A program made the position numbers and the translations under genes. From Candidatus Omnitrophota bacterium (GTDB taxonomy: Bacteria > Omnitrophota > Gorgyraeia > Gygaellales > Profunditerraquicolaceae), in contig JAPLLX010000001.1 of NCBI GenBank assembly GCA_026387335.1, positions 106,620-170,619 of the forward strand: 64,000 nt of DNA, given 5' to 3'. Of this stretch, positions 11,001 to 54,160 are shown piece after piece; positions within the stretch are counted from its first letter, which is position 1, and each line of letters opens with the position of its first letter. The notes under the pieces were generated by a model. That model did not search any database. It was given only the letters and a program-made list of their open reading frames with translations, and had not been told where the DNA came from.

Positions 11001-11074
11001 TGGTGGTTAAAAAGATAGAAGGATAGCTCGCTAGGTATATTATCTCTTGAAGAAATAGGAAGGGAGTGAAAAAT

Positions 11075-13817: not shown

Positions 13818-13821
13818 CAAA

Positions 13822-25549: not shown

Positions 25550-25550
25550 A

Positions 25551-34273: not shown

Positions 34274-34343
34274 GATGTGCCGCCTTAATCTTAACCCGTT
34301 TAGTTCATGGCCTATTGATTCAGATATAGCTGTGGTAAGAACT

Positions 34344-36461: not shown

Positions 36462-37441
36462 TGGATATGAAGAAAATATTGATAACTGGTGCAGGCGGTT
36501 TCATTGGTTCACATTTAGTTGAACACTGCTTACGGCAAGGCTATGAAGTAAGGGCTTTTCTGCATTATAATTCCAAGAATAATTGGGGGTGGCTGGAAGG
36601 GTTAAAATTAAACAAAAAAATAGAAATTGTCTGCGGAGATGTGAGAGATTATGATTTTGTTTTTAATGCTCTGAAAGGGTGCGATAGCGTCTTCCATCTT
36701 GCCGCATTAATAGGGATACCTTATTCCTACCTTTCTCCATTAGCTTACGTTAAGACAAATATTGAAGGCACCTATAACATTTTAGAAGCCTCCAGGCAGC
36801 TTAAGTTGCAAAATGTTCTTGTGACCTCAACGAGTGAAACGTATGGGACAGCTCAGTATATTCCAATTAACGAAACACATCCTATGGTGGGGCAGTCCCC
36901 TTATGCAGCCAGCAAAATAGCCGCCGACCAACTCTCTTTAAGTTATTATCTATCATTTAATCTACCGGTTAAGATCGTGCGGCCGTTTAATACTTACGGC
37001 CCCCGACAATCTGCGCGTGCGATCATACCTACAATAATTATGCAGCTTATTGAGGGTAAAAAATATATAACATTGGGCAATATGAATCCCACAAGAGACT
37101 TTAATTACGTGGAAGATACTGTAAACGGTTTTCTTGAGATAGCAAAATCTCCAAAGCTTCTTGGTGAGATTGTGAATATCGGAAGCGGAAAAGAAATTTC
37201 TGTAAACGCGCTAATAGAAATAATAGCCTCCCTGATGAAAATGAAAGTGAAAATAGCTGCCGATAAGAAAAGATTCAGGCCTGAAAAAAGCGAAGTAATG
37301 AGGCTTTGCTGCGATAACAGTAAAATAAAGAAAAATACGCATTGGAAGAGCTCTTACAGCCTTGAGCAAGGCCTGTTAAAGACAATCGATTGGGTAAAAA
37401 GAAACATAAAATTTTATAAAAGTGATATGTACTATGTCTAG
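36461..37441 (+). CDS. NAD-dependent NDP-sugar 4,6-dehydratase/epimerase (LegB/RmlB-like, extended SDR)
   Basis: 'ILITGAGGFIGSHLVE', 'TSTSETYG' and 'YAASKIAAD' (S...YxxxK). Confidence 0.7.
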   Translation: MDMKKILITGAGGFIGSHLVEHCLRQGYEVRAFLHYNSKNNWGWLEGLKLNKKIEIVCGDVRDYDFVFNALKGCDSVFHLAALIGIPYSYLSPLAYVKTNIEGTYNILEASRQLKLQNVLVTSTSETYGTAQYIPINETHPMVGQSPYAASKIAADQLSLSYYLSFNLPVKIVRPFNTYGPRQSARAIIPTIIMQLIEGKKYITLGNMNPTRDFNYVEDTVNGFLEIAKSPKLLGEIVNIGSGKEISVNALIEIIASLMKMKVKIAADKKRFRPEKSEVMRLCCDNSKIKKNTHWKSSYSLEQGLLKTIDWVKRNIKFYKSDMYYV

Positions 37442-37483: not shown

Positions 37484-38407
37484 ATGCTGAAGAACCCCTT
37501 AGTGATTGTTACTGGATGTTCAGGATTTCTCGGTAAGAATTTAATAAACGAATTAGCAACAAAAGAGGTAGATGTCCTTGGGATAGATAAGGCGGCTGAG
37601 GATGGTTATGGCCATAAGAATATAAAAATTAATAGATTGGATATTTTAACCCAAAATGGTATGGCTATCCTTAGAAGATATTTAAATAAGGTAAAGAACA
37701 AAGAAATTTATTTGGTTCACCTTATGGGAATACCGGATGTGGATGAATGTGAGAAAAATAAAGCTTTAGCTTACGATGTAAATGTAAAATCCGTGAAGAG
37801 CGTATGGGAGTTAGCTAGAAATTACAATATGAAAAAAATTGTTTTCCCTTCAACTGCTTTGGTTTATGGTACTAAATACGAAGACCAGATTAACGAAGGA
37901 TTCTCTCTTTTTCCTGAGAACACATACGCCCGGGAAAAGCTTGAAGCAGAGAATTATTTGATTAACAATTCTGCAGGTTCAAAGGTAGACTCCGTAATAC
38001 TTAGGTTATCTAATATTTATGGCGTTGGTATGAATGAAAATAACGTAGTGAATACAATACTAAAACAGTTCGCCGCAGGTTATCTGAGGTTAAGGGAATA
38101 CAGAAGTGTTAGAGACTATGTGTATGTGGAAGACGTAATTAGGGCTTTTATTATGTCGATTTTTTCTGAGTGTAAATTTAAAGTCTATAATGTCGGTAGT
38201 TCCATGGGGTATTCTGTGTGGGAATTGGCTAAAACAATAGCGGTGGCAACAGGTAGGGAAAAAATTATCTTGGGAATGAATCTAAGCGAGGAAGAGATTA
38301 GGGGGAGTGCAAGATTAGTGTTATGTTGCGATAGGATAAAGAATGATTTAAAGTGGGTTCCAGACTATAATTTTGAAAGTGGCATAAAAAGGATGATGAA
38401 TGCCTAA
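37484..38407 (+). CDS. NAD-dependent epimerase/dehydratase family protein
   Basis: 'VIVTGCSGFLGKNL' and 'YAREKLEAE'. Confidence 0.6.
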   Translation: MLKNPLVIVTGCSGFLGKNLINELATKEVDVLGIDKAAEDGYGHKNIKINRLDILTQNGMAILRRYLNKVKNKEIYLVHLMGIPDVDECEKNKALAYDVNVKSVKSVWELARNYNMKKIVFPSTALVYGTKYEDQINEGFSLFPENTYAREKLEAENYLINNSAGSKVDSVILRLSNIYGVGMNENNVVNTILKQFAAGYLRLREYRSVRDYVYVEDVIRAFIMSIFSECKFKVYNVGSSMGYSVWELAKTIAVATGREKIILGMNLSEEEIRGSARLVLCCDRIKNDLKWVPDYNFESGIKRMMNA

Positions 38408-39596
38408 GAGAAGAAAGATCGCTATATTTACCGGAAATAGGGCAGAATATGGCTTGCAATATCCAATAATTAAGGCTATCTCTGAATCTCGGATGCTAAA
38501 ATACTTTCTTCTGGTATCCGGAGCGCATTTAGACGAAAAATTTGGCTATACTAAGAAAGAGATTGAGAAAGACGGATTTAAGGTTTATGCCGAAATAAAG
38601 GCAGAAGTAAAAGCTGATAGCCTGTTTTCAACCACGCAGGCCATAGGTAATATTATTATAAACTTAAGTAGGGTTCTTAGGCGGATTAATCCGGATTTCT
38701 TGGTAGTTTATGCCGATAGATTTGAGGGCTTAGCTGCCGTTGTAACAGGTTCTCAGATGGGGATTCCCGTTGCGCATGTCGAGGGAGGAGATGTTACTTC
38801 TGGGGGGGCGCTTGATGATTATGTACGCCATGCGATGACAAAGCTTTCACATATTCATTTTACTACTAATCAAGAGGCTGCGCAAAGAATCGCCAGATTA
38901 GGTGAAGAAAAATGGAGAATATTTAATGTCGGCTTTTCTGTTGTTGACTTGATTAAGTCAGGTAAATTTGCCTCTTACGCTGAGGTATGCGAAAAGATAG
39001 GTTTTAAGTTAGATCTAAGTAAACCGGTAATATTGTTTACTCAGCATTCCATAACTACAGAGTTGAAAAATATATCCTCGCAGATCAATCCTTCGCTTGG
39101 AGCTCTTAAGTATTTTGCCGCTAAAGGCGTCCAGATTATAATTACCTATCCTAATAACGATGCGGGAGGAAGAAGAATAATAGAAATCCTGCAGAGATTA
39201 GGAAGAAAAAAGATTATCAATATAAATATATTCCCTCACTTGGGCCGTTATTATTATCATGGCCTGCTTAACATCTGCGGTAAAGAAACATTAGGTGTCT
39301 GTGTTGGAAATTCTTCAAGCGGGATTAAAGAGACTCCTGCCTTAAGCTGTCCTTTTGTAAATATCGGAACCCGACAAAAGGAAAGACTGCGTTCCATTAA
39401 TGTTATCGATACTCGTTATGATACAAATGAAATAATCCACGCCATTAATAAGTCTCTGTTCAATAAGGACTTCAGAGAAAGTTGTAGAAGATGTAGGAAT
39501 CCATATGGCGAAGGAGGCACAGGCAGGAAGATAGAGAAGGTTCTTGCCAGTTTAGCTATTAATAAGAAGCTTATTCAGAAGAAGATAACTTACTAA
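38400..39596 (+). CDS. Hydrolysing UDP/GDP-N-acetylhexosamine 2-epimerase (NeuC/LegG-like)
   Basis: 'IAIFTGNRAEYGL', 'HVEGGDVTSGGALDDYVRHAMTKLSHIHF'. A G7 tract sits at 38802-38808 inside the HVEGGD/TSGG region. Confidence 0.8.
   Translation: MPKRRKIAIFTGNRAEYGLQYPIIKAISESRMLKYFLLVSGAHLDEKFGYTKKEIEKDGFKVYAEIKAEVKADSLFSTTQAIGNIIINLSRVLRRINPDFLVVYADRFEGLAAVVTGSQMGIPVAHVEGGDVTSGGALDDYVRHAMTKLSHIHFTTNQEAAQRIARLGEEKWRIFNVGFSVVDLIKSGKFASYAEVCEKIGFKLDLSKPVILFTQHSITTELKNISSQINPSLGALKYFAAKGVQIIITYPNNDAGGRRIIEILQRLGRKKIININIFPHLGRYYYHGLLNICGKETLGVCVGNSSSGIKETPALSCPFVNIGTRQKERLRSINVIDTRYDTNEIIHAINKSLFNKDFRESCRRCRNPYGEGGTGRKIEKVLASLAINKKLIQKKITY
38802..38808 (+). repeat. Homopolymeric G7 tract inside the NeuC/LegG-like CDS
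   Basis: 'tctgggggggcg' read directly. It encodes the 'SGGA' segment. Confidence 0.8.
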
Positions 39597-39621: not shown

Positions 39622-40704
39622 ATGAACTTAAATGTTGAAGAAATCAAGAAGTTTACCGTTTCTGCGGAGATATCATTAAAAAATGTTATGAAGTTTTTGA
39701 GTGACGCAAAAAGTAGGGTAGTTTTTGTCGTAGATGAGTCCGGTAAGCTCACGGGTTCTATAACCGATGGGGATGTCAGGCGGGCTATTCTTAAAGGTGT
39801 GGATTTTAAGCAGCCCATATCCGAGATTATGTTCAAAGCCCCGCGTTTTGTCAAGCGTTCCGATAGGAAGCTCGAGGAAAAGGTGAAAAACTATCTGGTT
39901 GAAGAAAAACTTTATGCTATACCTCTTTTGGATGAACAGGATAAAATAGTAGATGTTTTCTTTTGGCATGATTTTTTAAAGTTCCATCCTTTAGAATCCC
40001 CCGAAAAAACTACCTTTACTAATCCAGTTGTGATTATGGCCGGTGGTAAGGGCGAAAGGCTAGATCCATTTACGAAAATATTACCCAAGCCCTTAATTCC
40101 TTTTGGTGATGAGCCTATAATTGATAAAATAATGGGAAATTTTAATAAGCACGGGTTTTCCAACTTTATACTTACCCTGAACTATAAAAAAGAGATGATA
40201 AAAATGTATTTTAAGGAAAATGCGTCTGCCTATAAAGTGCAATGGGTGGAAGAGGACGAGTATTTAGGGACTGCGGGAGGAATCGGGCTGCTTAAAGAAC
40301 TAGTCAGAGAAACATTTTTCGTATGTAACTGTGATACTATAATCGAGAACGACTTTAAAAATATTTTATTATGGCATAAGGCGGAAAAGGCCCTTATTAC
40401 GATTATCGGATGCCACAAAGAAATGGTAATTCCGTATGGTATTCTCGAAATGGAAGAAGGCTGCTTAAAAGCAATTAACGAAAAACCAATGTTTGATTTT
40501 GTCATAAATACTGGAGTGTATATAATTGAGCCGGAAGTCTTATCTCTTATTCCAGCCAAACAAAAACTGGATATGGACTACCTAATAGATAAAGTAATGA
40601 GCCGCGGTAAGGTCGCTGTTTATCCTATATGCGAAGGATGGCTTGATCTCGGTCAATGGAAAGAATATAAAGATAGTCTTTATTTATTGCAATACAGTAA
40701 ATAA
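39622..40704 (+). CDS. CBS-pair + sugar-1-phosphate nucleotidyltransferase (PtmE-like)
   Basis: N-terminal CBS pair, then 'VIMAGGKGERLDPFTKILPKPLIPF' (G-x-G-x-R-L NTP-transferase motif). SD 'AAAGGAG'. Confidence 0.75.
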   Translation: MNLNVEEIKKFTVSAEISLKNVMKFLSDAKSRVVFVVDESGKLTGSITDGDVRRAILKGVDFKQPISEIMFKAPRFVKRSDRKLEEKVKNYLVEEKLYAIPLLDEQDKIVDVFFWHDFLKFHPLESPEKTTFTNPVVIMAGGKGERLDPFTKILPKPLIPFGDEPIIDKIMGNFNKHGFSNFILTLNYKKEMIKMYFKENASAYKVQWVEEDEYLGTAGGIGLLKELVRETFFVCNCDTIIENDFKNILLWHKAEKALITIIGCHKEMVIPYGILEMEEGCLKAINEKPMFDFVINTGVYIIEPEVLSLIPAKQKLDMDYLIDKVMSRGKVAVYPICEGWLDLGQWKEYKDSLYLLQYSK

Positions 40705-40720: not shown

Positions 40721-41446
40721 ATGTATAGAGGAAAGAGTGTACTAGCATTAATTCCGGCAAGGGGAGGGAGCAAGGGTTTGCCAGGAAAGAATATTCGCTT
40801 ACTTTTGGGAAAACCTTTGATCTCCTGGTCCATAGAGCAGGCTTTAGGAAGCCGGTATATTGATAAAGTGGTTGTAAGCACTGATTCAACGAAAATTACC
40901 GGTATTGCCCGTCACTATGGAGCGGAAGTTCCTTTTAGGAGGCCGAAGAAATTAGCATCCGACAATGCGAAAAGTATGGATGTTATTTTACACGCAATAA
41001 ATTTTTATGAATCACGGGGTCATATTTTTGATATTATCGTTTTTCTTGAGCCGACCTCTCCGTTAAGGGAGATAGAAGATATCGATAAGGCGATTGAGAT
41101 CCTTATGACTAATCAAAAGGCTGAAAGCATAGTTGGTGTTGCAAAACTTGAATCTGCTCATCCGGAGTTTCTGGTGAAGCTAAAGAAAGGTTTTTTGGAG
41201 CCTTATTTGAATAAGGCGTACAAAGTTTTTCGAAGGCAGGAGGTGGAGGAGCTATATTTCTTTGAGGGGAGTTTATATATAGCTTACGCGGAATCATTAA
41301 AGAATAAAAAAACATTCTATCACAATAAGACATTGGCCTACATCGTTCCCAAGTGGAAATCTTTTGAAATGGATGATTATACGGATTTTATAATAATCGA
41401 GGCAATTCTTAGGGCGAGAAGAAGAGGAGTAAAAATTTATGACTAA
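40721..41446 (+). CDS. CMP-nonulosonate synthetase (NeuA/LegF/PseF family cytidylyltransferase)
   Basis: 'ALIPARGGSKGLPGKNI' and 'FLEPTSPLR'. Confidence 0.8.
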   Translation: MYRGKSVLALIPARGGSKGLPGKNIRLLLGKPLISWSIEQALGSRYIDKVVVSTDSTKITGIARHYGAEVPFRRPKKLASDNAKSMDVILHAINFYESRGHIFDIIVFLEPTSPLREIEDIDKAIEILMTNQKAESIVGVAKLESAHPEFLVKLKKGFLEPYLNKAYKVFRRQEVEELYFFEGSLYIAYAESLKNKKTFYHNKTLAYIVPKWKSFEMDDYTDFIIIEAILRARRRGVKIYD

Positions 41447-42755
41447 AAAAACAGGTATCAGATTATGGAATGAGGCAAAAACTATTATTCCTGGAGGGAA
41501 TCAGCTTTTGTCAAAAAGGGTAGAGCGTTTTCTCCCGGGTGAATGGCCGGCATATTATACTAAGGCAAAAGGCTGCCAGATTTGGGATCTGGATGGCAAT
41601 AGATATTATGATTTTGCTCAGATGGGAGTCGGTTCTTGTGCCTTGGGTTATGCGGATGAGGATGTGAATAGGGCAGTTATTAGTGCGATTCGTGATGGAT
41701 CAATGGCTACATTAAACTGTTACGAAGAAGTTGAATTAGCTAAAAAGTTAATAAAAATCCATCCCTGGGCTGATTCAGTCAAGTTTGCAAGAACCGGCGG
41801 TGAGGCTTGTGCTATAGCAATTAGAATTGCCCGCGCTGCTGCAGGCCGCAGTAAAATTGCATTTTGCGGCTATCATGGATGGCATGATTGGTATCTTTCG
41901 GCAAATATAGCGAATTCAAATAATCTTGACGAACAGCTTTTGCCCGGCCTTGCTCCGTTAGGAGTGCCCTTTGAGTTAAAAGGAAGCGCGATCCCTTTTA
42001 ATTATAACAAATTAAGCGAGTTAGAAAATATTATTAAGTCTAACCCCAAACAAATTGGCGTTATTATTATGGAACCTATGCGCAGCATTTATCCTGAGCC
42101 CGGATTTCTTGAAGGAGTTAGAAAGATAGCCGACCGCATAGGAGCGATTCTTATCTTTGATGAAGTAACCTCAGGTTTTCGCCTTAATTTAGGCGGAATT
42201 CATCTGGTTTTTGGGGTTAAGCCGGATATTGCGGTATTTGGAAAAGCACTTGGCAATGGTTTCCCTATTACGGCTGTTATCGGCAAGAAAAAAATTATGG
42301 ATTTTGCGCAACGAACTTTCGTCAGTTCTACTTTTTGGACTGAACGCATAGGTTTCGTAGCTGCGTTAGCTACATTAAGAAAGATGGCGGAGAAAAAAGT
42401 GCAGAAGAAGCTTGTTTATTTTGGGGAACGTATTAATGCGGGATGGAAAAAGTTGGCAAGAAAACATAATTTGGGCATTACCATCAGCGGAATACCTCCG
42501 CTTACGCACATTTCGTTTAAAAATAATGTTCCTTTGGAAACTCAAACCCTATATGCGCAGGAAATGCTTGAACAGGGTTTCCTAGTGAGTTCATCCGTAT
42601 ATGCGACTTATGCGTATACGGATGAACTTATTGATAAGTTTATTTTTCATTCAGACAGGGCTTTTGCAAAAATCAGAAAAGCATTAGATTCGACGGAAAT
42701 AAAGCGATTTTTGAAAAACGATGTAATACAAGAGGGTTTTAAACGGCTTGCTTAA
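41439..42755 (+). CDS. Class III PLP-dependent aminotransferase (glutamate-1-semialdehyde aminomutase-like)
   Basis: 'DLDGNRYYDF', 'FDEVTSGFR' and 'FGKALGNGFP' (PLP-Lys region). Confidence 0.8.
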   Translation: MTKKTGIRLWNEAKTIIPGGNQLLSKRVERFLPGEWPAYYTKAKGCQIWDLDGNRYYDFAQMGVGSCALGYADEDVNRAVISAIRDGSMATLNCYEEVELAKKLIKIHPWADSVKFARTGGEACAIAIRIARAAAGRSKIAFCGYHGWHDWYLSANIANSNNLDEQLLPGLAPLGVPFELKGSAIPFNYNKLSELENIIKSNPKQIGVIIMEPMRSIYPEPGFLEGVRKIADRIGAILIFDEVTSGFRLNLGGIHLVFGVKPDIAVFGKALGNGFPITAVIGKKKIMDFAQRTFVSSTFWTERIGFVAALATLRKMAEKKVQKKLVYFGERINAGWKKLARKHNLGITISGIPPLTHISFKNNVPLETQTLYAQEMLEQGFLVSSSVYATYAYTDELIDKFIFHSDRAFAKIRKALDSTEIKRFLKNDVIQEGFKRLA

Positions 42756-42784
42756 GTTTTATTCATATAGAAAGAGGAAGGACT

Positions 42785-43555
42785 ATGCTAAAAGATAAGG
42801 TAATAATTGTTGCTGGCGGAGCAGGTCTATTAGGCAGTGAATTCGTGAAAGCAATTGCGGAAAATAATGGAACTGCGATTATCGGTGATAGTGATGAAAA
42901 AAAAGGCCGTAAGACAAAAACTGATATTTTAAGAAATTTGCGAAATGGCAGGGTAGACTTTATTGTGTTAGATATAACTTCTTTAAAGTCTATTAAAGCA
43001 ATGATTAAGAAGGTTCATTTAAAATATGGAAAAATTGATGCTTTAGTTAATAGCGCATTCCCTAAGAATCGAAATTATGGTAAATATTTTTTTGATGTAC
43101 AGTATAAAGACTTTTGTGAGAACCTAAACACACATTTAGGCGGATATTTCCTAACTTCACAACAGGCCGCTTTATATTTTAAACAACAAGGGTATGGTAA
43201 TATTGTGAATATTGCTTCTATTTATGGGGTAATTCCTCCTAAGTTTGAAATATACCAAGGGACAAAAATGACTATGCCAGTGGAATATGCTATGATAAAA
43301 TCGGCGCTAATTCATTTGACAAAATATATGGCTAAATATCTAAAAGGGATGAATATCCGCGTTAACGCTATCAGTCCAGGGGGCATCTTTGATAATCAGC
43401 CGGATCTTTTCGTGAAAGCATATAATAATTTATGCCTAAACAAAGGGATGCTGGGGAAAAAAGATTTGAATGGGACTTTAGTTTATCTGCTGTCAGAGAT
43501 GTCAAAAGATTTAAACGGGCAGAATATAACCGTGGATGGTGGATTCACATTGTAA
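42785..43555 (+). CDS. Short-chain dehydrogenase/reductase (PtmA/FabG-like)
   Basis: 'VIIVAGGAGLLGSEF' and 'YAMIKSALIHLTK'. SD 'GAGGAAGG'. Confidence 0.75.
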   Translation: MLKDKVIIVAGGAGLLGSEFVKAIAENNGTAIIGDSDEKKGRKTKTDILRNLRNGRVDFIVLDITSLKSIKAMIKKVHLKYGKIDALVNSAFPKNRNYGKYFFDVQYKDFCENLNTHLGGYFLTSQQAALYFKQQGYGNIVNIASIYGVIPPKFEIYQGTKMTMPVEYAMIKSALIHLTKYMAKYLKGMNIRVNAISPGGIFDNQPDLFVKAYNNLCLNKGMLGKKDLNGTLVYLLSEMSKDLNGQNITVDGGFTL

Positions 43556-43574
43556 GTAACCAAGGAGTTTAGTG

Positions 43575-45173
43575 ATGAAATTTCTTATGATCTATGCTAA
43601 CGATACTGCTAATACAAAAGTTCCAATAGGGATACTTTATATACTTACCCGCTTAAAAAAAGAAGGGCATGAAGTGAGTATGTTTGATAGCTCTAAATAC
43701 GCCATAGATATAGATAAAAATGATTACGCGATAAGAGGAAGGTTTCTAAATTTTCAGGCAGTTGATTTAAGGCCTTACGGTGTTACCTTTGAGAGCGTAA
43801 CAATGGAACAACTTGACCAAAAGTTGAAAGAACATATATTAAATTTTTGTCCGGATTTAATAGGAATTTCTATACTTGAAGATACAAGTAAAACCGGGTT
43901 GCATTTTGCTGAGATTTGTAAAAAAGTAGCTCCGAAAGTCCCCCTTATCGTAGGGGGCGTATATTGTTTAACAAGGCCGGAATACGTGATAGAGAATAAA
44001 TTTGTGGATATTGTTTGCGTGGGGGAAGGCGAAGAGAGCATAAGTGAGCTAATGTTTAATTTGTCAAAGGGCAAAAGTTTTGAGGCAATTTCCAATCTTT
44101 GGATTAAATTACCAGACGGGGACATTAAAAAAAATGCCATAGGGTATCCTACTGAATTAGATTCTTTGCCATACATAGATCTTTCTATAATTGAGGATAG
44201 GCATCTTTTCGCCCCTTTCGCGGGACACGCCTATAAGACATCTTTTGTGGAGGGCCAAAGAGGATGTCCAAGGAGGTGTACCTATTGCTGTAATCAGATT
44301 TTTTTAGACGCATACTCAAAATTTGGCGCTAAATATTTAAGGCGCAAAACAGTTAATCGCCTTATTCAAGAAATAGTATATTTAAAAGATAATTTTGGGC
44401 TTAATTTTATTCAATTCATAGATGACGATTTTTTGTTTAGCCCATTAGATAGAATAAAAGAATTTTCTGAAAGTTATAAAAAGCATGTGAATCTTCCCTT
44501 TTGGATACAAGCTGAAGCTTGCAACGTAACCGAAGAAAAAATTAAACTAATCAGAAAAGCCGGTTGTATTTCAATCAGTATCGGTATTGAAACCGGGAGC
44601 AAGTATATATTGGAAAAGATTATGAAACGGAAAACATCCCAAGAGATTACTTTAAAAGCATTTAAGATAATGCATAGGCACGGCATAAGAACATCCGCAA
44701 ATGTTATTTTGGGTATGCCTGAGGAAACCAGGGAAAATATTTTTGAAACAATTGAGTTTGTGAGGAAATGCAAGCCCGTAAGCATTAACTCTAATATTTT
44801 TGTCCCTTACTATGGAACGGCCTTGCGAGAATATTGCGTTGAAAAGGGGTATTTGGATAAAGACTATCACCGTGGTTCGCGCAATTCCTGGAAAGCCGTT
44901 TTAAATATGCCGCAAATTTCACAAGATGAGGTTGAGAATTTATCAAGAGTATTTGTGCTTTACGCAACATTGTCTAAGAAATATTGGGCTCAAATAGGAA
45001 TGGTCGAGAAATTTCCTGAAAAAAGCTTAGAGCTTCAAAGAAAGCTTGAAAATATTTTTTGGAAAATTGTGTGCAAACGCGGGATTAATATCGATGTTAG
45101 AGGGTATGATTATAGTCTGTTTTTTAAAAATAGACAATTGGAGCTGCAATCTCAAGGTAAGAATAAAGTTTAA
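43575..45173 (+). CDS. B12-binding-domain radical SAM enzyme (class B rSAM, copy 2)
   Basis: B12-binding-like N-terminus, 'GQRGCPRRCTYC' (CX3CX2C) and 'SISIGIETGS'. Roughly 35% identical to copy 1 by eye. SD 'AAGGAG'. Confidence 0.8.
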   Translation: MKFLMIYANDTANTKVPIGILYILTRLKKEGHEVSMFDSSKYAIDIDKNDYAIRGRFLNFQAVDLRPYGVTFESVTMEQLDQKLKEHILNFCPDLIGISILEDTSKTGLHFAEICKKVAPKVPLIVGGVYCLTRPEYVIENKFVDIVCVGEGEESISELMFNLSKGKSFEAISNLWIKLPDGDIKKNAIGYPTELDSLPYIDLSIIEDRHLFAPFAGHAYKTSFVEGQRGCPRRCTYCCNQIFLDAYSKFGAKYLRRKTVNRLIQEIVYLKDNFGLNFIQFIDDDFLFSPLDRIKEFSESYKKHVNLPFWIQAEACNVTEEKIKLIRKAGCISISIGIETGSKYILEKIMKRKTSQEITLKAFKIMHRHGIRTSANVILGMPEETRENIFETIEFVRKCKPVSINSNIFVPYYGTALREYCVEKGYLDKDYHRGSRNSWKAVLNMPQISQDEVENLSRVFVLYATLSKKYWAQIGMVEKFPEKSLELQRKLENIFWKIVCKRGINIDVRGYDYSLFFKNRQLELQSQGKNKV

Positions 45174-45196: not shown

Positions 45197-45505
45197 ATGA
45201 CAGATAAAGCAAGAGTGGTTCAAGCAATATTCAGGGCAGTTGATGAGGTTAACGAGCTATTACCAGAAGAGCAGCAATCCGAAAAGTCCCTGGATACAGT
45301 TTTGTTTGGTAAAAATGGAAGATTAGATTCTTTAGGAATTGTAATTTTTTTCGTAGCAGTAGAGAAAAAAATTGAAAAAGAATTCGGAGTAGTAATTATG
45401 TTGACGGATGAGAAGATAATGTCTCAGAAGAATAATCCCCTACAGACTATTGAGACCCTTGTTGATTATGTTTCTATGCATTTAGAGGAGAAATTAAATG
45501 GATAG
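45197..45505 (+). CDS. Acyl carrier protein
   Basis: About 102 aa with 'GRLDSLGIV' (phosphopantetheine attachment Ser in a DSLG-type motif). SD 'GGAG' 6 nt upstream. Confidence 0.65.
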   Translation: MTDKARVVQAIFRAVDEVNELLPEEQQSEKSLDTVLFGKNGRLDSLGIVIFFVAVEKKIEKEFGVVIMLTDEKIMSQKNNPLQTIETLVDYVSMHLEEKLNG

Positions 45506-47186
45506 ACGGAAACTTAGGGCGTTACTTATTTCGGACTTCAATATAGATATTCTTAAGGGATATTTAAATAATGATGAAGAATTACCGTTACTTAATATAA
45601 CAGTTGCGCCTTTCGGGCAGGTTATGCCAATTTTGCTTGAGGAAAAATCCGAATACTGGAAGAGTAAATATAATTCCGTGATAGTATGGACTCAGCCCGA
45701 AAATGTTATCGGGTCTTTCAAGTGCATTCTTAATTATCAACATGTACCTCTTGACAAAGTGCTTGCGGAAGTAGATGAGTTTTCTCGAGCATTAATGAAT
45801 TTACAAGAGAGAGTTAGTCTTGTATTCGTTCCTATATGGGTCCTGCCGACGTATCATAAAGGTTATGGAATGCTTGAGATGAAAGATGGAATCGGTATTG
45901 AGAATATATTAAAGCAAATGAATTTAAGGCTTTCAAAAAATTTAGACTCCGCAACAAATATATATTTATTAAACACTCAGAAGTGGATCGAGGTTGTCGG
46001 TAAGTATGCATTTGATCATAAATTATGGTATATGGCTAAGATCCCTTTTGGAAACGAAGTCTTCAAAGAGGCAACCCAGGATATTAAATCTGCCTTAAGA
46101 GGAATTAATGGTGCTTCAAGAAAGATAATCATTCTTGACTTAGATAATACATTATGGGGAGCAATAGTAGGAGAAGTTGGTTGGGAAAATATTCAACTGG
46201 GAGGGCACGACTATATCGGTGAAGCGTATCTTGATTTTCAAAGAGCGTTAAAATCTTTAACTAATCGCGGTATTTTATTAAGTATAGTCAGTAAAAACGA
46301 AGAGTCATTAGCTTTAGAAGCAATAAACAAGCATCCAGAAATGGCGCTTAGGTTAGAGGATTTTGCTGCCTGGAAAATTAATTGGAAAGACAAAGCTCAG
46401 AATATTATCGATTTAGTTTCTGATTTGAATTTGGGCTTGCAATCCGCAGTTTTTATAGATGATGACCCTGTGGAGCGGGCAAGAGTTAGGGAGGCTTTAC
46501 CTGAGGTTTTTGTTCCTGAATGGCCAGAAGACAAATTGTTATATAAGAAGACGCTACTTAGCCTGCGTTGTTTTGATGCTCCTTCAGTTAGCAAAGAAGA
46601 CTTAGAAAGAACTAAGATGTATGTGACTGAGCGTGAGCGGCAGGATTTAAAAAGTAATGTTGGTTCTTTAGAAGATTGGCTAAAGGTATTAGGGATAAAA
46701 GTAAAAGTGGAGAAGCTTAATGATGCCAATCTTCAAAGAACGGTTCAATTGTTAAATAAAACTAATCAAATGAATCTTAGTACAAGAAGAATGACGGAAT
46801 CTGAGCTGGTAAATTGGACTAAGCAGGATAATCATAAATTTTGGATTTTTCGTGTTATTGATAAGTTTGGCGATGCAGGCTTAACAGGTATAATAAGCCT
46901 CCAGGTAGATAATAAGATAGGTAGGGTCGTTGATTTCGTATTAAGTTGTAGGGTGATTGGACGAAAAATAGAAGAAACTATGCTATATAAAGTTGTTAAT
47001 TATGCACAATCTATAGGATTAGATAAGGTCTACGCAAAATATATTCCGACACCAAAGAATAAACCATGTTTAGAATTATGGAATCGTTCAGGATTTGTTT
47101 ATAATGAAGAAAATAATTGTTTTAGTTGGGAAGTCAAGAAAGATTACTCCTTGCCAGACTGTATACAAATCGAAAAGGAAGAATGA
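45498..47186 (+). CDS. FkbH-like protein (HAD subfamily IIIC phosphatase + C-terminal acyltransferase region); predicted glyceryl-ACP loader
   Basis: HAD motif 'IIILDLDNTLWG', 'LSIVSKNEE' and C-terminal 'SCRVIGRKIEE' (conserved Cys region of the FkbH family). Adjacent ACP. Confidence 0.7.
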   Translation: MDRRKLRALLISDFNIDILKGYLNNDEELPLLNITVAPFGQVMPILLEEKSEYWKSKYNSVIVWTQPENVIGSFKCILNYQHVPLDKVLAEVDEFSRALMNLQERVSLVFVPIWVLPTYHKGYGMLEMKDGIGIENILKQMNLRLSKNLDSATNIYLLNTQKWIEVVGKYAFDHKLWYMAKIPFGNEVFKEATQDIKSALRGINGASRKIIILDLDNTLWGAIVGEVGWENIQLGGHDYIGEAYLDFQRALKSLTNRGILLSIVSKNEESLALEAINKHPEMALRLEDFAAWKINWKDKAQNIIDLVSDLNLGLQSAVFIDDDPVERARVREALPEVFVPEWPEDKLLYKKTLLSLRCFDAPSVSKEDLERTKMYVTERERQDLKSNVGSLEDWLKVLGIKVKVEKLNDANLQRTVQLLNKTNQMNLSTRRMTESELVNWTKQDNHKFWIFRVIDKFGDAGLTGIISLQVDNKIGRVVDFVLSCRVIGRKIEETMLYKVVNYAQSIGLDKVYAKYIPTPKNKPCLELWNRSGFVYNEENNCFSWEVKKDYSLPDCIQIEKEE

Positions 47187-47593
47187 TTATGGTTAAGCTA
47201 AATTTCTTCGGTAAAGACGCAAGATTCCACCATGTCGGTATTGTAGTAAAATCTATAAAAGAAGTATGCCCGTCGAGTAGGATAACTATCGACCCCATTC
47301 AAGGGGTAAGTGTTGCCTTTGTATCATTGAATGGAGTTAAATTAGAACTTATTGAACCCTATAGTGATAATTCTCCTGTAACCGGAAGCCTAAAGAAAGG
47401 GATAAAACTTCTTCATATCTGTTATGCTGTTTCTAATATTGAAAATATAATAAAGGAGTGTAGAAAATTTGGATTCCATTGCATTGCACAACCTGTGCCG
47501 GCGGCTGCCTTTAATAAAAAAATAGCCTGGGTATATAGTAACGAATATGGGTTATTTGAACTTTTAGAAAAGAAAGACTCTAAGAAAAAATGA
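47183..47593 (+). CDS. VOC-family (glyoxalase/methylmalonyl-CoA epimerase-like) protein
   Basis: 'FHHVGIVVKSIKE' and 'ELIEP'. ATGA overlap with the upstream gene. Confidence 0.5.
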   Translation: MIMVKLNFFGKDARFHHVGIVVKSIKEVCPSSRITIDPIQGVSVAFVSLNGVKLELIEPYSDNSPVTGSLKKGIKLLHICYAVSNIENIIKECRKFGFHCIAQPVPAAAFNKKIAWVYSNEYGLFELLEKKDSKKK

Positions 47594-48657
47594 TGTATCC
47601 ATCGGGTTTAGATATCCATATATGTAAAGAAGCGGAAATTGAAAAGCTGATGGGATTTATTAATAAATATTGGTCTAAGAATCATATATTATCATCAAGC
47701 AAAGTCCTTATGGACTGGCAACACTACAATAAGAAGGATCGTTGTTACAATTTTGTAGTTGCTTTAAACAAAAATGATCCGGAACTTATTGGAATATTGG
47801 GGTTTATACCCTCGCGTCACTTTGATCCGGCGCTTTCAGAAAACAATACAGTTTGGTTAGTTACCTGGAAGATAAGGGAAGATTCAAAAATCGCAGGATT
47901 AGGATTATTATTACATGGTTTTTTAGTAACGAATGAAAATCATAAGGCAATGGGAACAATAGGAAATAATAATAAGGTAGCTGGGCTTTATAAAGCGCTT
48001 GGTTACGAGATAGGCCAGTTAAATCAATTTTATATTATCAATGATAAAAAGGAAAATTTTTGTCTGGTAGATAGTTATCCCAAGAATCCTTATCGTCCAC
48101 AGCATTTTAATCATAATTCAAAGAAAAAATTTATAAAGATCGATAAGTTAAACTTTGCGGAGTTGTCCAGAAAGCTAACCTATCAACAATCCGAAGCAGA
48201 ACTGCCTAAAAAGTCTTTTAGATACTTCTATAAGCGTTATTTGGAACATCCAATTTACAATTATGATCTTTATGCCATAGCTGAAGGGGAGCAATATATA
48301 GGATTAGTAGTTATGCGTTGTGTAGAATACAAAGATAATTATGCCTTAAGAATCGTAGATTACTTTGGACCCGATGATGGCATAGCAAGAATGAGAAGTC
48401 AATTTCAAGAGTTACTCCGGGTTTATGATGCTGAATACATTGACATATTTAATTATGGAATAAATGACACTTTTTTTGAAGGATCAGGTTTTATAAAACT
48501 TAATACAGGAAGTAAGGTAATAATCCCAAATTACTACGAACCATTCGAAAAGCGTAATGTAAAAATCAATTTCGCATTTCATGCAGATGAAAAATTCAGT
48601 TATAAACTTTTCAAAGGGGACGCAGACCAAGACCGGCCAAATCTAATGTCCCATTAG
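47590..48657 (+). CDS. Hypothetical protein; N-terminal region GNAT-like (candidate acyltransferase)
   Basis: 'VWLVTWKIREDSKIAGLGLLLHGF...KVAGLYKALGYE' loosely resembles the GNAT motif A region. Weak. Confidence 0.3.
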   Translation: MMYPSGLDIHICKEAEIEKLMGFINKYWSKNHILSSSKVLMDWQHYNKKDRCYNFVVALNKNDPELIGILGFIPSRHFDPALSENNTVWLVTWKIREDSKIAGLGLLLHGFLVTNENHKAMGTIGNNNKVAGLYKALGYEIGQLNQFYIINDKKENFCLVDSYPKNPYRPQHFNHNSKKKFIKIDKLNFAELSRKLTYQQSEAELPKKSFRYFYKRYLEHPIYNYDLYAIAEGEQYIGLVVMRCVEYKDNYALRIVDYFGPDDGIARMRSQFQELLRVYDAEYIDIFNYGINDTFFEGSGFIKLNTGSKVIIPNYYEPFEKRNVKINFAFHADEKFSYKLFKGDADQDRPNLMSH

Positions 48658-48747
48658 TCAAGTGGTTTTCAAGTTAGCGCCGGACTTTTGTTAAGACACG
48701 TTTCAAAAATTTAGAATAACGTAAAGTAATCTAGCGATAGTTGAACC

Positions 48748-50541
48748 ATGGATAAAGCGGATAAAATGAAAAATGATAAGGTTTTTTTGGTAACAACCGC
48801 AATTGAAGATTTTTGGGATACTTCTTATCGTATTATTTTTTTAGGAGAGTGGTGTAAAAGATATAGTAGAAAAATATTTTGGCAAAATATTACATCAGAA
48901 ACCCTGCCGTCTTATTTTGAAGAAAAAAAGGGCCGCGAGATTTATCGCTATTTAGATACTGTTTTTGAACGCCTACTTTTTGTATTGCATAAACAAATGA
49001 ATAGAATTCACGGGACTAATTTTAGTATAAGATACTGGCGGATAATCTTTGGTTTCTGGCTTATAAATTATATACATGTAATGTATGATAGGTATAAAAA
49101 TTTGAAACATTTTACTGGACTTTATCCAAATTTTACCTCGATTTGCTTAGACAAAGAATGTTTTGTTACTCCTAAAGATACAATACATTTTGTTTGTCAT
49201 CTTAAAAATGATGATTATAATCTTCAAATATACAGTAGAATTTTATTTTGGTTGGGTTACAAATTACCTACAAAAAAATCGTCAATTGCTTTGCCTGATG
49301 TAAGTAGGTATTTTACGAAAGGGAGATGGAGTTTTAAGATAATTTTAAAATATGCCTATGAGCTAATCTGTAAAACATTTCAGAATAAAGATCAGATCCT
49401 TCTGAGAAATACTTATTTTTCTTATTTATCTCTATTTAGATTAGTACTTAAAACAAAAGGTGCTGTTTGGCCATGCGTTTATGATTACCAAGATTTACCT
49501 GATTTTCCTATTAATTATGAAGTAAGGGAAATTTTAGGTAGCTTTGAATTCGGAGAGAATGAATTTGAGAAAATGCTTGCTTCGCTTATTTCTTCCGATA
49601 TACCTCAAGTTATGATTGAAGGTTATAATTTTTTAAGAGAAAAGGTAAAAAATGATTTTGTATCTGAACCTAAAGCAATAATGAGCGGGATTTCTTGGTG
49701 GTTTGATACTACCTTCCGGGTTTGGGCTGCTGAATCTGCTGAAAAAGGAACTAAATTGTTAGGTGTGCAGCACGGAGGCGGCTATGGAACCTTGGAAGAT
49801 TCAATACAGATAGATGCTGAATTAAGTATTGTTGATAGATTTTACTCATGGGGTTGGAAATGTTGTGATGTTTATGCAGAAGTTATTCCAATGCCAGCAA
49901 CTAAATTAATAGAGAGAAAAATGAAAAGTCTGAATGGGCGTAATGGAGTACTGTGTGTTTTCACTAGTTACCCTAGATATTTGATTCAGTTTCCTTGGAC
50001 AGCAGATTATTTGAAAAATTATTATTTAATTCAAACTTTATTTATATCTCACCTTTCAGGATCAATAATGAGTCAGCTAAGGATTCGTCCCCACAGAGAA
50101 GATTTAGGATGGGATGTACGAGATAGAATAAGAGATCAGTTTCCCCAAATAAAAATTGAGAATTGGGATATTCCATTTTCTGATAGCCTGAGCAAGTGCT
50201 CTGTATTCATTTGTGATCATCCATTATATTCTACCACCTTTGTAGAAGCCTTAATAAATAATACGCCAACGATTGCATTTTATAACCCGGATTTTGCAGC
50301 TAATGTAATAAGAGACGAAGCTAAGGATATTTTAAGTCAGCTCAAAAATAGTTCGATTATTTTTGAGGATCCAGTATTGGCGGCTGAACAGCTAAATTCG
50401 GTTTACAATTCTATAGAAAGCTGGTGGAATGAGCCAAAGCGCCAAGAGGCTATAAGAAACTTTCTAGATAGATTCGGAAGGATTTCTTCCACTTGGTTGC
50501 AGGATTGGTCAGAAGAAATTTTAAAAGTTAGGAAAACTTAA
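48748..50541 (+). CDS. Hypothetical protein (597 aa), no recognised motif
   Basis: Long ORF with consistent codon usage, preceded by a 90-bp gap. Confidence 0.3.
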   Translation: MDKADKMKNDKVFLVTTAIEDFWDTSYRIIFLGEWCKRYSRKIFWQNITSETLPSYFEEKKGREIYRYLDTVFERLLFVLHKQMNRIHGTNFSIRYWRIIFGFWLINYIHVMYDRYKNLKHFTGLYPNFTSICLDKECFVTPKDTIHFVCHLKNDDYNLQIYSRILFWLGYKLPTKKSSIALPDVSRYFTKGRWSFKIILKYAYELICKTFQNKDQILLRNTYFSYLSLFRLVLKTKGAVWPCVYDYQDLPDFPINYEVREILGSFEFGENEFEKMLASLISSDIPQVMIEGYNFLREKVKNDFVSEPKAIMSGISWWFDTTFRVWAAESAEKGTKLLGVQHGGGYGTLEDSIQIDAELSIVDRFYSWGWKCCDVYAEVIPMPATKLIERKMKSLNGRNGVLCVFTSYPRYLIQFPWTADYLKNYYLIQTLFISHLSGSIMSQLRIRPHREDLGWDVRDRIRDQFPQIKIENWDIPFSDSLSKCSVFICDHPLYSTTFVEALINNTPTIAFYNPDFAANVIRDEAKDILSQLKNSSIIFEDPVLAAEQLNSVYNSIESWWNEPKRQEAIRNFLDRFGRISSTWLQDWSEEILKVRKT

Positions 50542-50584
50542 AATAGGTTAGCTATAATTTAAAAAAGTATGAATTTGGAGAACT

Positions 50585-51253
50585 ATGTTTAATTTAATGG
50601 TTTCTTGGCTAAAAAAAAGAGTAAAAAAGGATACTTTGTTATGGACTGCCTTAAATTACATTAAAGATATTATTATGTTTACGCCAATAGTCATCCCCAT
50701 TTACAGGAGAATTTCAAAAAATAGTATTTTTATCTTTAAAAGTGAATTAGTGGGAGCTTCCACCTTTCCAGTAAAGCTAATCAATAAGACAGTAGAATTA
50801 TTTAGTCCTAAAATGGTTTTAGACTTAGGTTGTGGTACGGGTAAATCACTTGATTATTTTCTTTCAAAACGTATAGAAGTCATTGGAGTTGAAGGTTCAA
50901 AAATAGCGATATCTGCAGCTAATCATCCGGAATTAATCATAAAGTATAACTTGGAAAAAGAATTAAAGCTTAATAAAAGGTTTGATTTAATCTGGTCATT
51001 TGAATTTGTGGAGCATATCCATCCTAAATTTATAGATAATTTATTAAAGACATTTTCAAATCATTCAAATAGAATTGTTTTGTCAGCTGCCAGGCCTGGG
51101 CAAGGGGGGAATGGGCATTTTAATGAGCAACCAGAGGCCTATTGGGTGAAGCAATTTGAAAAGTATGGATATCGATCAAACAGAGATAAAATCGAAGAAC
51201 TCAGAAATATAGATGAACTATATGCGAAGAACATGTTGGTTTTTGAAAGGTAG
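50585..51253 (+). CDS. Class I SAM-dependent methyltransferase
   Basis: 'VLDLGCGTGKSLDYF' motif I and 'FEFVEHI' motif. Confidence 0.65.
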   Translation: MFNLMVSWLKKRVKKDTLLWTALNYIKDIIMFTPIVIPIYRRISKNSIFIFKSELVGASTFPVKLINKTVELFSPKMVLDLGCGTGKSLDYFLSKRIEVIGVEGSKIAISAANHPELIIKYNLEKELKLNKRFDLIWSFEFVEHIHPKFIDNLLKTFSNHSNRIVLSAARPGQGGNGHFNEQPEAYWVKQFEKYGYRSNRDKIEELRNIDELYAKNMLVFER

Positions 51254-53674: not shown

Positions 53675-54160
53675 ATGCTTAAAATTTCAAGACAGGCTAA
53701 AATATCAAAGTTCGCTGATATAGAAGATTCCCTTAGGGGATCAATATTATTAATTGATCAAGGGGTGCATATAGATTCTTTTGTTAAAATAAAATTTGTT
53801 GGCGGTAGCGGAGATATTAGAATAGGGGAAAACACTTATATTAATTCGGGGACGGTTATTTATTCGGGAAATGGAATTTCGATAGGAAAGAATGTGCTTA
53901 TTGCATCCAACTGTTCTTTAGCCCCAACCAATCATGCGATAAAAAAAGATAAGAACATAATTGCTCAGAGATTTATGCCGAGCAGGGGAGGGATTATTAT
54001 CGAAGATGATGTTTGGATTGGCGCGAACACAGTGATATTAGATGGAGCAATTCTCCGTAAAGGTTGTGTAGTAGGCGCGCATTCATTAGTTAATAAGGAA
54101 TTAGAGGGCTACTCAATTAATGTCGGTAGTCCTACAAAGAAGATCGGCTATAGAGAATGA
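53675..54160 (+). CDS. Hexapeptide-repeat (LbetaH) acetyltransferase
   Basis: Repeats such as 'IGENTYINSGTVIYSGNGISIGKNVLIAS' and 'VWIGANTVILDGAILRKGCVVGAHS'. Confidence 0.75.
   Translation: MLKISRQAKISKFADIEDSLRGSILLIDQGVHIDSFVKIKFVGGSGDIRIGENTYINSGTVIYSGNGISIGKNVLIASNCSLAPTNHAIKKDKNIIAQRFMPSRGGIIIEDDVWIGANTVILDGAILRKGCVVGAHSLVNKELEGYSINVGSPTKKIGYRE

Follow-up and report, generated by a model that had tools for sequence, protein, structure and literature searches.

A possible carrier-protein-dependent route to N-acylated nonulosonic acids encoded in a glycan locus of Candidatus Omnitrophota

The glycan locus considered here lies on a 64,000 nt stretch of DNA (the window) from a Candidatus Omnitrophota bacterium (GenBank assembly GCA_026387335.1, contig JAPLLX010000001.1). 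Within it, a gene for an acyl carrier protein (ACP) adjoins a gene for an FkbH-domain enzyme, a kind of protein that makes glyceryl-S-ACP with 1,3-bisphosphoglycerate as the donor during polyketide and tetronate biosynthesis (PMC7489565, PMC3679948). An earlier note on this DNA, made from the sequence alone, had read the pair and the genes that follow as a cassette supplying a glyceroyl-type substituent to a sugar. Combining domain and structure searches with comparisons of other genomes, this report assesses the composition of that cassette and the chemistry that it may serve. A total of 59 open reading frames (ORFs) was considered, and coordinates are window positions.

The cassette and its products

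Between 43.5 and 51.3 kb, the window holds seven ORFs (Table 1), all of them on the plus strand, as is the whole of the surrounding glycan locus; the six that make up the cassette of the earlier note lie at or close to the positions given there. The ACP gene begins with an ATG at 45197, which a GGAG precedes by 7 nt, and its end shares 8 nt with the start of the FkbH gene (ATGGATAG). The FkbH stop codon overlaps the start of the VOC gene in a 4 nt ATGA, which places that start better at 47183 than in the first ORF call, and the VOC stop codon overlaps the start of the 355-aa protein gene at 47590 in the same manner. Because of these overlaps of 8, 4 and 4 nt, the ACP, FkbH, VOC and 355-aa genes are regarded as one translationally coupled unit. 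Beyond it, 90 nt precede the LIC12162-family transferase gene and a further 43 nt the methyltransferase gene. A scan of 34-52 kb found no more promoter- or terminator-like sites than expected from shuffled sequence, and does not resolve the operon boundaries.

Pfam and NCBIfam are uninformative for the lone ACP sequence and for the 355-aa protein; the former was assigned with a profile of its family and the latter with a predicted structure. The sole NCBIfam match of the single ACP sequence is a weak one, to the AmcB ACP (E=1e-3). Although a relationship to the PP-binding family was not recovered by the single-sequence Pfam search, a profile of 26 orthologues matches carrier proteins exclusively in the PDB (51 matches at E<1), the best being 2lki (1.9e-4) and the ACP 2l4b (3.5e-4). 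D44 and S45 are the sole invariant columns of the family and stand in register with the LDSL phosphopantetheine serine of 2l4b and 2lki, which bears out the earlier assignment of an ACP with a DSLG-type site. Library scans found no phosphopantetheinyl transferase among the window ORFs.

The FkbH-like protein scores well above cut-off against TIGR01686 (282.4 bits; cut-off 146.65) and HAD-IIIC (58 bits; cut-off 35.75), and weakly against Pfam FkbH_N (18.7 bits; cut-off 27). An FkbH_N region is followed by a HAD-IIIC phosphatase domain and then by a C-terminal acyl-transfer domain that bears the Cys. Residues D214, D216, T218, S265, K299, D321 and C484-R485 (within 'LSCRV') are invariant across 19 orthologues, so that the HAD-IIIC motif and the C-terminal Cys to which the earlier note had pointed are both upheld. 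Alignment with the FkbH protein of a Streptomyces plasmid tetronate operon (33 % identity, E=8e-74) brings the motifs LDLDxTxWG (LDLDDTVWG in the tetronate-operon protein), VSKN and LSCRV into register. The sole PDB relative is BF1531 of Bacteroides fragilis (3slr, an N-terminal fragment), and an identical protein from a Candidatus Omnitrophica metagenome-assembled genome is publicly annotated as 'HAD-IIIC family phosphatase'. By analogy with the polyketide and tetronate enzymes, the protein is predicted to be a glyceryl-S-ACP synthase that uses 1,3-bisphosphoglycerate.

The next gene encodes, as had been proposed, a VOC-fold protein. It matches Glyoxalase_4 (E=1e-12, 48.5 bits; cut-off 27) and falls under the cut-off of the methylmalonyl-CoA epimerase model TIGR03081 (47.9 bits; cut-off 114.95); in the PDB, it is related to a Clostridium glyoxalase I (2qh0/3hdp, 1e-19) and to human methylmalonyl-CoA epimerase (7e-10). 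Based on these relatives, it is predicted to act at C2 of a 2-hydroxyacyl thioester, by epimerization or elimination. The 355-aa protein has no match in Pfam or NCBIfam, and a few of its homologues show faint PF00583 similarity. Its AlphaFold2 model (pLDDT 92.7, pTM 0.90) is matched by Foldseek to N-myristoyltransferase, VipF and 3ddd (E=4e-11 to 6e-10, probability 1.0, TM ~0.45-0.49); as modelled, the protein is two GNAT folds in one chain. What had been described as a possible GNAT-like protein therefore resembles tandem-GNAT acyltransferases in its predicted structure. About 1000 homologues exist, nearly all unannotated. Given the gene neighbourhood, from which the use of acyl-ACP is deduced, the tandem GNAT is predicted to be an acyl-ACP:amino-sugar N-acyltransferase.

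Table 1. Genes of the cassette, its immediate neighbours and the upstream nonulosonate cluster
Feature	Position	Strand	Basis
Acyl carrier protein (ACP), 102 aa	45197..45505	+	orthologue profile, Ser45 in LDSLG
FkbH-domain enzyme, 562 aa	45498..47186	+	TIGR01686, HAD-IIIC
Small VOC-fold protein	47183..47593	+	Glyoxalase_4
Tandem-GNAT acyltransferase (predicted), 355 aa	47590..48657	+	AlphaFold2 model + Foldseek
LIC12162-family GT-B transferase, 597 aa	48748..50541	+	TIGR04331
Class I SAM methyltransferase	50585..51253	+	Methyltransf_23 3e-12
B12-binding radical-SAM enzyme, directly upstream of ACP	43572..45173	+	Radical_SAM 5e-24, B12-binding 7e-11
NeuB/LegI-type nonulosonate synthase	34275..35399	+	TIGR03569 355.9 bits, under cut-off 399.65
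Polysaccharide-deacetylase-family protein, 324 aa	35487..36461	+	partial PgaB/IcaB-type matches far under cut-off
LegB-type NDP-GlcNAc 4,6-dehydratase	36461..37441	+	TIGR04180 483.5 bits (cut-off 475)
NeuC/LegG-type hydrolysing 2-epimerase	38400..39596	+	TIGR03568 375.5 bits (cut-off 235.9)
CBS + nucleotidyltransferase (PtmE-like)	39622..40704	+	translation + homology to L094/L009 genes
CMP-nonulosonate synthetase	40721..41446	+	CTP_transf_3 2e-28; PseF model 158.5 bits, under cut-off 205.7
Class III aminotransferase + PtmA-like SDR	41439..43555	+	Aminotran_3 4e-47; PRK09186 348.8 bits (cut-off 255)

Conserved partners of the ACP-FkbH pair and of the tandem GNAT

Every window protein was searched against a comparison set of 90 FkbH loci; an alignment-based scan of metagenomes gave 80 loci and a single-FkbH scan of genome contigs gave 7. 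Individual loci are cited by L-numbers. FkbH orthologues 52-76 % identical to the window protein occur in many phyla (>4000 matches). An ACP homologue is present in 80 of the 90 loci, in about 70 of them at most 200 nt in front of FkbH, and most of the loci that lack an ACP match are cut off at that point. Homologues of the window VOC protein occur in 11 loci, in 10 of which they take the first or second position after FkbH, and homologues of the 355-aa GNAT in three. A distantly related 368-aa GNAT (hhalign probability 93 %, E=3e-7) is found in 19 loci, directly upstream of the ACP-FkbH pair or a few genes from it. The commonest neighbour of FkbH elsewhere is a MaoC-dehydratase and short-chain dehydrogenase/reductase (SDR) fusion, in 21 loci; this fusion and the VOC protein never occur together.

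Four architectures recur, namely histidine phosphatase - deacetylase - 368-aa GNAT - ACP - FkbH - MaoC/SDR fusion; ACP - FkbH - (methyltransferase) - VOC - GNAT or AAC(3)-like transferase - deacetylase; ACP - FkbH - LbH transferase - a 593-aa protein; and LbH - ACP - FkbH - MaoC/SDR. Based on these arrangements, the conserved core is the ACP with FkbH, joined near-constantly by an acyltransferase (tandem GNAT, LbH or AAC(3)-like) and a PF01522 deacetylase, all of them families that recur across the 90 loci, and by a variable tailoring enzyme. Wherever a neighbourhood was inspected gene by gene, it proved to be a glycan locus that encodes glycosyltransferases, Wzy and flippases, with no sign of a polyketide synthase (PKS) partner. 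The co-occurrence of the pair with nonulosonate genes, which the earlier note had raised, was also observed, with homologues of NeuB, NeuC, the CMP-synthetase or the PtmE-type protein (CBS + nucleotidyltransferase) in just 7 of the 90. In L020 and L022 the order is LbH-like gene - ACP - FkbH - VOC - DegT aminotransferase; this arrangement connects the VOC variant with an amino sugar, and the LbH-like gene of L022 is 26-27 % identical to the window LbH gene. The histidine phosphatase of the first architecture, a member of the phosphoglycerate-mutase family, edges the deacetylase-GNAT-ACP-FkbH-MaoC/SDR group in L031, L033, L034, L041-L043, L045 and L057, and may be linked to the supply or editing of the phosphoglycerate donor. 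The protein of about 593 aa in the third architecture is unannotated, lacks a Pfam match and stands beside LbH acyltransferases and ACP-FkbH in L006-L008, L059, L070, L072, L085, L086 and L089.

The 355-aa GNAT family was sampled at seven further loci, L091-L097. A PF01522 deacetylase lies directly downstream of the GNAT gene in five of them (L091, L094, L095, L096 and L097), with 48-62 % identity to the window deacetylase, and near the GNAT gene in L092 and L093. It is also directly downstream of the 355-aa GNAT homologues of L009, L044 and L087 (39-48 % identity). Thus, across the sampled loci, a deacetylase is near the GNAT gene in all, and an ACP with a loading enzyme is adjacent in most. 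The loader is FkbH in L009, L044, L087, L092, L093 and L094; an AMP-binding enzyme with an SDR in L091, from cultured Paenibacillus harenae, where the ACP is 44 % identical to that of the window; and a ketosynthase III (KSIII) with a ketoreductase in L095, a plausible route to 3-hydroxybutyryl-ACP. L096 and L097 have no loader. The GNAT355/deacetylase subtype is found mostly in nonulosonate loci. One of these, the flagellin glycosylation island L094, encodes a Maf-like transferase, FlaG, FliD and FliS, and carries a full legionaminic-type set that includes a CMP-synthetase, NeuC, NeuB, PtmE and DegT, as well as methyltransferases; its ACP, FkbH, GNAT, deacetylase and LegB proteins are 41, 64, 51, 62 and 54 % identical to those of the window, and it has no VOC gene. 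In view of this pairing, the window deacetylase, which the earlier note had overlooked, is predicted to be a de-N-acetylase that frees an amine for re-acylation. The composition first given for the cassette thus stands for the ACP, FkbH, VOC and GNAT genes but not for the 597-aa transferase and the methyltransferase discussed below.

Four of the loci encountered deserve separate mention. The nonulosonate locus L095 (8007-19679) has the order ACP (76 aa) - ketoreductase - KSIII - tandem GNAT - deacetylase beside deacetylase - MaoC/SDR - FkbH-like - ACP (78 aa), a double carrier cassette from which one sugar would be expected to bear two distinct N-acyl groups. In L096 (10001-12023) and L097 (10001-12054), the GNAT and deacetylase genes stand amid housekeeping genes, and the 10 kb around them lack an ACP, a loader and any glycan gene. 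Finally, an almost unannotated 267-kb record of an isolate-named gut bacterium, Subdoligranulum variabile (L099, OY725877.1, 151748-155704), has FkbH-like (32 % identical) and tandem-GNAT-like (25 %) genes 1.7 kb apart, and is a possible experimental system.

Nonulosonate genes and the wider locus

Upstream of the cassette, the gene order is NeuB, deacetylase, LegB, SDR, NeuC, CBS-nucleotidyltransferase, CMP-synthetase, class III aminotransferase, PtmA-like SDR and radical-SAM enzyme. Scores above cut-off for TIGR04180 and TIGR03568 agree with the earlier view that nonulosonate and NDP-sugar genes flank the cassette; NeuB and the CMP-synthetase, which score under their specific cut-offs, are assigned at family level only. 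The domain call for the CBS-nucleotidyltransferase derives from its translation and from homology; it is 34 and 28 % identical to the CBS+NTP_transferase genes at the PtmE position of L094 and L009, respectively. Set against the legionaminic pathway of Campylobacter jejuni, which consists of PtmE, LegB, LegC, LegH, LegG, LegI and LegF (PMC3438082), the window encodes LegB, a LegG-type epimerase and a PtmE-type nucleotidyltransferase. The only DegT protein in the window (6649-7773) is 30 kb away and 40 % identical to the DegT protein beside LegB in L094, and the only LbH protein is WbbJ-like (53675-54160). Class III aminotransferases have been reported in the pseudaminic acid (Pse) islands of Aeromonas (PMC7874193). 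The window example has no homologue in the 90 FkbH loci, and the PtmA-like SDR has generic homologues only. The idea that these two enzymes make an isoseryl unit from glyceryl-ACP was dropped, both on account of this lack of co-occurrence with FkbH and because both genes are ordinary accessories of nonulosonate islands (PMC7874193).

Immediately downstream of the coupled unit, the 597-aa protein, which had been listed as an unknown, matches TIGR04331 at 461.4 bits (cut-off 225) over positions 1-584 of 585. Its AlphaFold2 model (pLDDT 90) is matched by Foldseek to PglH, WaaG, OGT and TagF/TarL, all indicative of a GT-B fold, and its homologues carry PF27859. An acyltransferase role was abandoned in view of the GT-B fold, the membership of a known family and the lack of any link to FkbH; none of the 90 FkbH loci has a homologue, but L093 does. 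Members of the LIC12162 family adjoin neuABC in Herbaspirillum (PMC6679464). In one 962-aa protein (P0347), the LIC12162 domain (PF27859) is joined to an alpha-2,8-polysialyltransferase domain (PF07388), which hints that these proteins handle sialic-acid-like sugars. The window protein is probably the glycosyltransferase for the (modified) nonulosonate, outside the conserved acyl cassette. A second 597-aa ORF (32480-34273) was considered as a LIC12162 paralogue and rejected, being an ABC exporter.

The methyltransferase that follows is, as had been thought, a SAM enzyme (of class I), but its membership of the cassette is not borne out, for the 90 FkbH loci contain no homologue and the seven GNAT-family loci showed none. 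Non-orthologous methyltransferases often flank ACP-FkbH elsewhere, and the window enzyme is a possible O-methylase of the acyl group or of the sugar. A homologue of the B12 radical-SAM enzyme lies near FkbH in one of the 90 loci. The suggestion that this enzyme and the methyltransferase modify the acyl group consequently finds no support in conservation. The locus is unusually rich in radical-SAM genes, with two B12-binding paralogues 32 % identical to each other (20136-21737 and 43572-45173) and two SPASM-type enzymes (14907-15950 and 25524-26618). Each of two more B12-radical-SAM genes just past the 3' end of the window (12545-13948 and 16773-18233 of L098) adjoins a methyltransferase gene, one following it directly and the other overlapping its end.

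Elsewhere in the window are genes for rhamnose, heptose and other sugar enzymes, for glycosyltransferases, for a flippase and for an ABC exporter. A second ulosonate set (9825-11923) comprises a CTP_transf_3 cytidylyltransferase-HAD hydrolase fusion and then a 285-aa NeuB-family synthase without a SAF-domain match; the products of the locus probably include two distinct ulosonic acids. Two pairs of split transketolase-like genes, each with an N-terminal thiamine diphosphate half and a pyrimidine/C-terminal half (630-2305 and 29436-31174), suggest two-carbon transfer onto a sugar.

Proposed pathway, alternatives and implications

From gene identities, folds, motifs, operon coupling and conserved neighbourhoods, we infer a carrier-protein-dependent N-acyl exchange module inside a legionaminic-type nonulosonate pathway, a reading that is given somewhat better than even standing here. 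The ACP would be phosphopantetheinylated by a transferase encoded elsewhere. By homology to the FkbH enzymes of polyketide pathways, the glyceryl unit of 1,3-bisphosphoglycerate would be taken onto Cys484 of FkbH, whose HAD domain would strip the 3-phosphate, and the D-glyceryl group would be handed to the ACP thiol. The VOC enzyme, judging from its fold, may take the C2 proton of the 2-hydroxyacyl thioester, leading to inversion at C2 or to the onset of loss of the 3-hydroxyl. The deacetylase would cleave the N-acetyl group from a nucleotide-linked diamino sugar or from the nonulosonate itself, and the tandem GNAT would move the ACP-bound acyl group to the freed amine, yielding an N-glyceroyl-type legionaminic-like acid. 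This product would be CMP-activated and then attached to a glycan, with the LIC12162 GT-B enzyme as the probable transferase. The neighbouring methyltransferase or radical-SAM enzyme may add a methyl group, although conservation does not support this. The acceptor may be N5 or N7; N7 is possible because there is no LegH gene, and the tight pairing of deacetylase and GNAT genes argues for exchange at a nitrogen that already bears an acetyl group. The earlier proposal of a glyceroyl-type substituent made through ACP and FkbH agrees with the family tests, the absence of a PKS and the glycan loci; the cassette composition given with it does not stand, and 'glyceroyl' is itself not assured, because the VOC enzyme may change the acyl group.

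Several observations weigh against this N-acyl exchange. LegC (a DegT aminotransferase) and LegH (an N-acetyltransferase) are not within the Leg cluster of the window, which makes its nonulosonate pathway atypical, and the substrate of the class III aminotransferase (glutamate-1-semialdehyde aminomutase-like, 41439-42755) is unexplained. The window deacetylase is 9 kb from the cassette, and the VOC protein has no defined role in the scheme. The single ACP sequence has no match to Pfam PP-binding at E<0.01. The GNAT-deacetylase pairs of L096 and L097, which lack an ACP, mean that the tandem GNAT may use acyl-CoA and so weaken the case for ACP dependence. With nonulosonate homologues in only 7 of the 90 loci, the acceptor could be another amino sugar of the very large window locus. 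Furthermore, the glycan-type FkbH clade is known from genes alone, and the source of the window is an uncultured organism.

Among the alternatives, the one to be taken most seriously, albeit rather unlikely, is that the same cassette yields another C3 or C4 acyl group, such as L-glyceroyl, pyruvoyl, lactyl-type or O-/C-methylated, through the VOC enzyme and possibly the methyltransferase or radical-SAM enzyme. The relationship of the VOC protein to glyoxalase I and methylmalonyl-CoA epimerase, enzymes that act at the alpha-carbon of thioesters, fits such an outcome, and the mutual exclusion of VOC and MaoC/SDR genes beside FkbH suggests alternative tailoring of the same intermediate. Moreover, methyltransferases are frequent neighbours of the pair, and di-O-methylglyceroyl-Pse is known (PMC3068675). 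On the other hand, the VOC protein cannot be assigned to a specific family (TIGR03081, 47.9 against 115 bits), close relatives of the locus such as L094 have no VOC gene, and neither the methyltransferase nor the radical-SAM enzyme of the window is conserved with the cassette. A smaller probability attaches to the tandem GNAT being an acyl-CoA (acetyl) transferase in place of LegH, with the ACP-bound unit delivered by the C-terminal domain of FkbH or by the LbH protein (53675-54160), as an O-ester or onto another sugar. The ACP-free GNAT-deacetylase pairs of L096 and L097, the lack of a LegH-type gene beside the window Leg genes, the service of LbH or AAC(3)-like transferases in other FkbH loci and the many other sugar pathways of the window are all compatible with this division of labour, which is at odds with the 4 nt FkbH/VOC and VOC/GNAT overlaps, the position of the GNAT355 family next to three different ACP-loading systems, and the location of the related 368-aa GNAT upstream of or near ACP-FkbH in 19 loci.

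Two further explanations would remove the acyl chemistry from the glycan altogether. It is highly improbable that the FkbH-like protein is a mere HAD phosphatase, for example acting on a nonulosonate 9-phosphate, and that the small ORF is no functional carrier. The public annotation as a 'HAD-IIIC family phosphatase' and the failure of Pfam to find PP-binding in the small ORF speak for it, and a HAD phosphatase step does exist in some sialic acid pathways; yet the protein has a full FkbH domain above cut-off, including the C-terminal Cys region, and the near-universal ACP linkage, the invariant Asp-Ser and the conserved acyltransferase neighbours would then go unaccounted for. That the ACP and FkbH serve a polyketide, tetronate or lipid pathway elsewhere and sit in a glycan locus by chance is scarcely credible. 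All characterized FkbH enzymes do come from polyketide or tetronate pathways (PMC7489565, PMC3679948), but the same pair lies in glycan loci among the 90 others, and the 5' edge of the window is 45 kb from the pair. In agreement with the earlier note, no ketosynthase, acyltransferase, PKS or fatty-acid synthase gene was found among the 59 window ORFs or in the 8.6 kb past the 3' end.

Compared with the methoxymalonyl-ACP system (fkbGHIJK) and the tetronate 'glycerate-utilisation operon', the cassette shares the FkbH domain, the HAD motifs, the LSCRV Cys and an adjacent dedicated ACP. Its partners are different, namely VOC, tandem GNAT, polysaccharide deacetylase and a glycan locus, and the window with its 8.6 kb of downstream sequence lacks the FkbI/FkbK dehydrogenases, FkbG O-methyltransferase, KSIII, E2-like acyltransferase, hydrolase, PKS and AT genes of those systems. 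The Streptomyces comparator operon has the order KSIII-FkbH-ACP-E2-like-hydrolase, and its FkbH protein is only about 33 % identical to the glycan clade, the members of which are conserved across phyla. The D-lactate starter modules of trans-acyltransferase PKSs, for example BryA of bryostatin, have the order dehydratase-ketoreductase-FkbH-ACP and convert glyceryl to lactyl. The MaoC/SDR fusion beside glycan FkbH genes mirrors that logic, whereas the window has a VOC enzyme in place of the dehydratase and reductase. A carrier-built hydroxy acid used as the N-acyl group of an O-antigen amino sugar also has a likeness in Vibrio cholerae O1, in which perosamine is N-acylated with 3-deoxy-L-glycero-tetronate and rfbK-O include an ACP-like protein; the loading chemistry and enzymes differ, and we know of no FkbH, tandem GNAT or deacetylase in that acylation. 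In C. jejuni, acpP and fabH genes, going by annotation, presumably lie beside cj1302. This gene of the flagellin glycosylation locus has been noted in passing to have an fkbH domain (PMC7099621), and can thereby be likened to the window gene by its place in a nonulosonate/flagellin locus, as L094 is also a flagellin island. In the open-access literature that was searched (subscription journals excluded), PMC7099621 is the sole link between FkbH and glycans, and nothing ties cj1302 to glyceroyl. The flagellin of the C. jejuni strain concerned (NCTC 11168) bears di-O-methylglyceric-acid derivatives of Pse, with an experimental tie only to Cj1295 (PMC3068675); Cj1298 was considered as the glyceroyl transferase of this organism and set aside, since it is LegH (PMC3438082). 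Carrier-protein genes also lie within the nonulosonate loci of Aeromonas and enterobacterial flagellin islands, where a role in fatty-acid synthesis has been ascribed to the genes for ACP, reductase and AMP-synthetase (PMC7874193, PMC4875605). The P. harenae locus matches this set, with ACP-SDR-AMP-ligase followed by tandem GNAT and deacetylase; the loader in these islands is an adenylating enzyme and not FkbH, and the acyl group therefore differs.

Loading of a glyceryl unit by FkbH and ACP is well established for polyketides and tetronates, and its glycan setting has been anticipated in part by genome annotation without being described as a pathway. For the N-glyceroyl and di-O-methylglyceroyl nonulosonates that are known, no gene has been assigned (PMC5378307, PMC6120980, PMC3068675). 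In Tannerella forsythia, the gene responsible for N-glyceroyl-Pse 'remains elusive' (PMC6120980), and the same has been stated for Vibrio vulnificus (PMC5378307), in keeping with the earlier statement that no genetic route to these sugars through an FkbH/ACP pair is established, none being assigned in the open-access literature searched. More tentatively, and with rather less than even confidence, a widespread and modular 'N-acyl swap' system is envisaged that would act on amino sugars, nonulosonic acids among them, with an invariant core of PF01522 de-N-acetylase and tandem GNAT, often a dedicated ACP, and interchangeable loaders. In such a system, FkbH would supply glyceryl (tailored by VOC, MaoC-SDR or methyltransferase), KSIII with ketoreductase 3-hydroxybutyryl, and AMP-ligases other acids.

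Nonulosonic acids occur on flagella, S-layers, capsules and lipopolysaccharide, where their N-acyl groups, among them glyceroyl, di-O-methylglyceroyl and 3-hydroxybutyryl, shape immune recognition, phage binding and motility. If the proposed N-acyl exchange is correct, the window and roughly a hundred relatives would provide a gene set for glyceroyl chemistry (ACP, FkbH, tandem GNAT and deacetylase), FkbH glyceryl loading would work outside polyketide synthesis, and a function would be found for two large unannotated families, the 355-aa tandem GNATs and the 'HAD-IIIC phosphatases' of glycan loci. Should the modular system also hold true, it would be the genetic basis of N-glyceroyl, di-O-methylglyceroyl, lactyl-type and 3-hydroxybutyryl nonulosonates across many phyla, and the N-acyl group of a surface sugar would be predictable from the loader gene.

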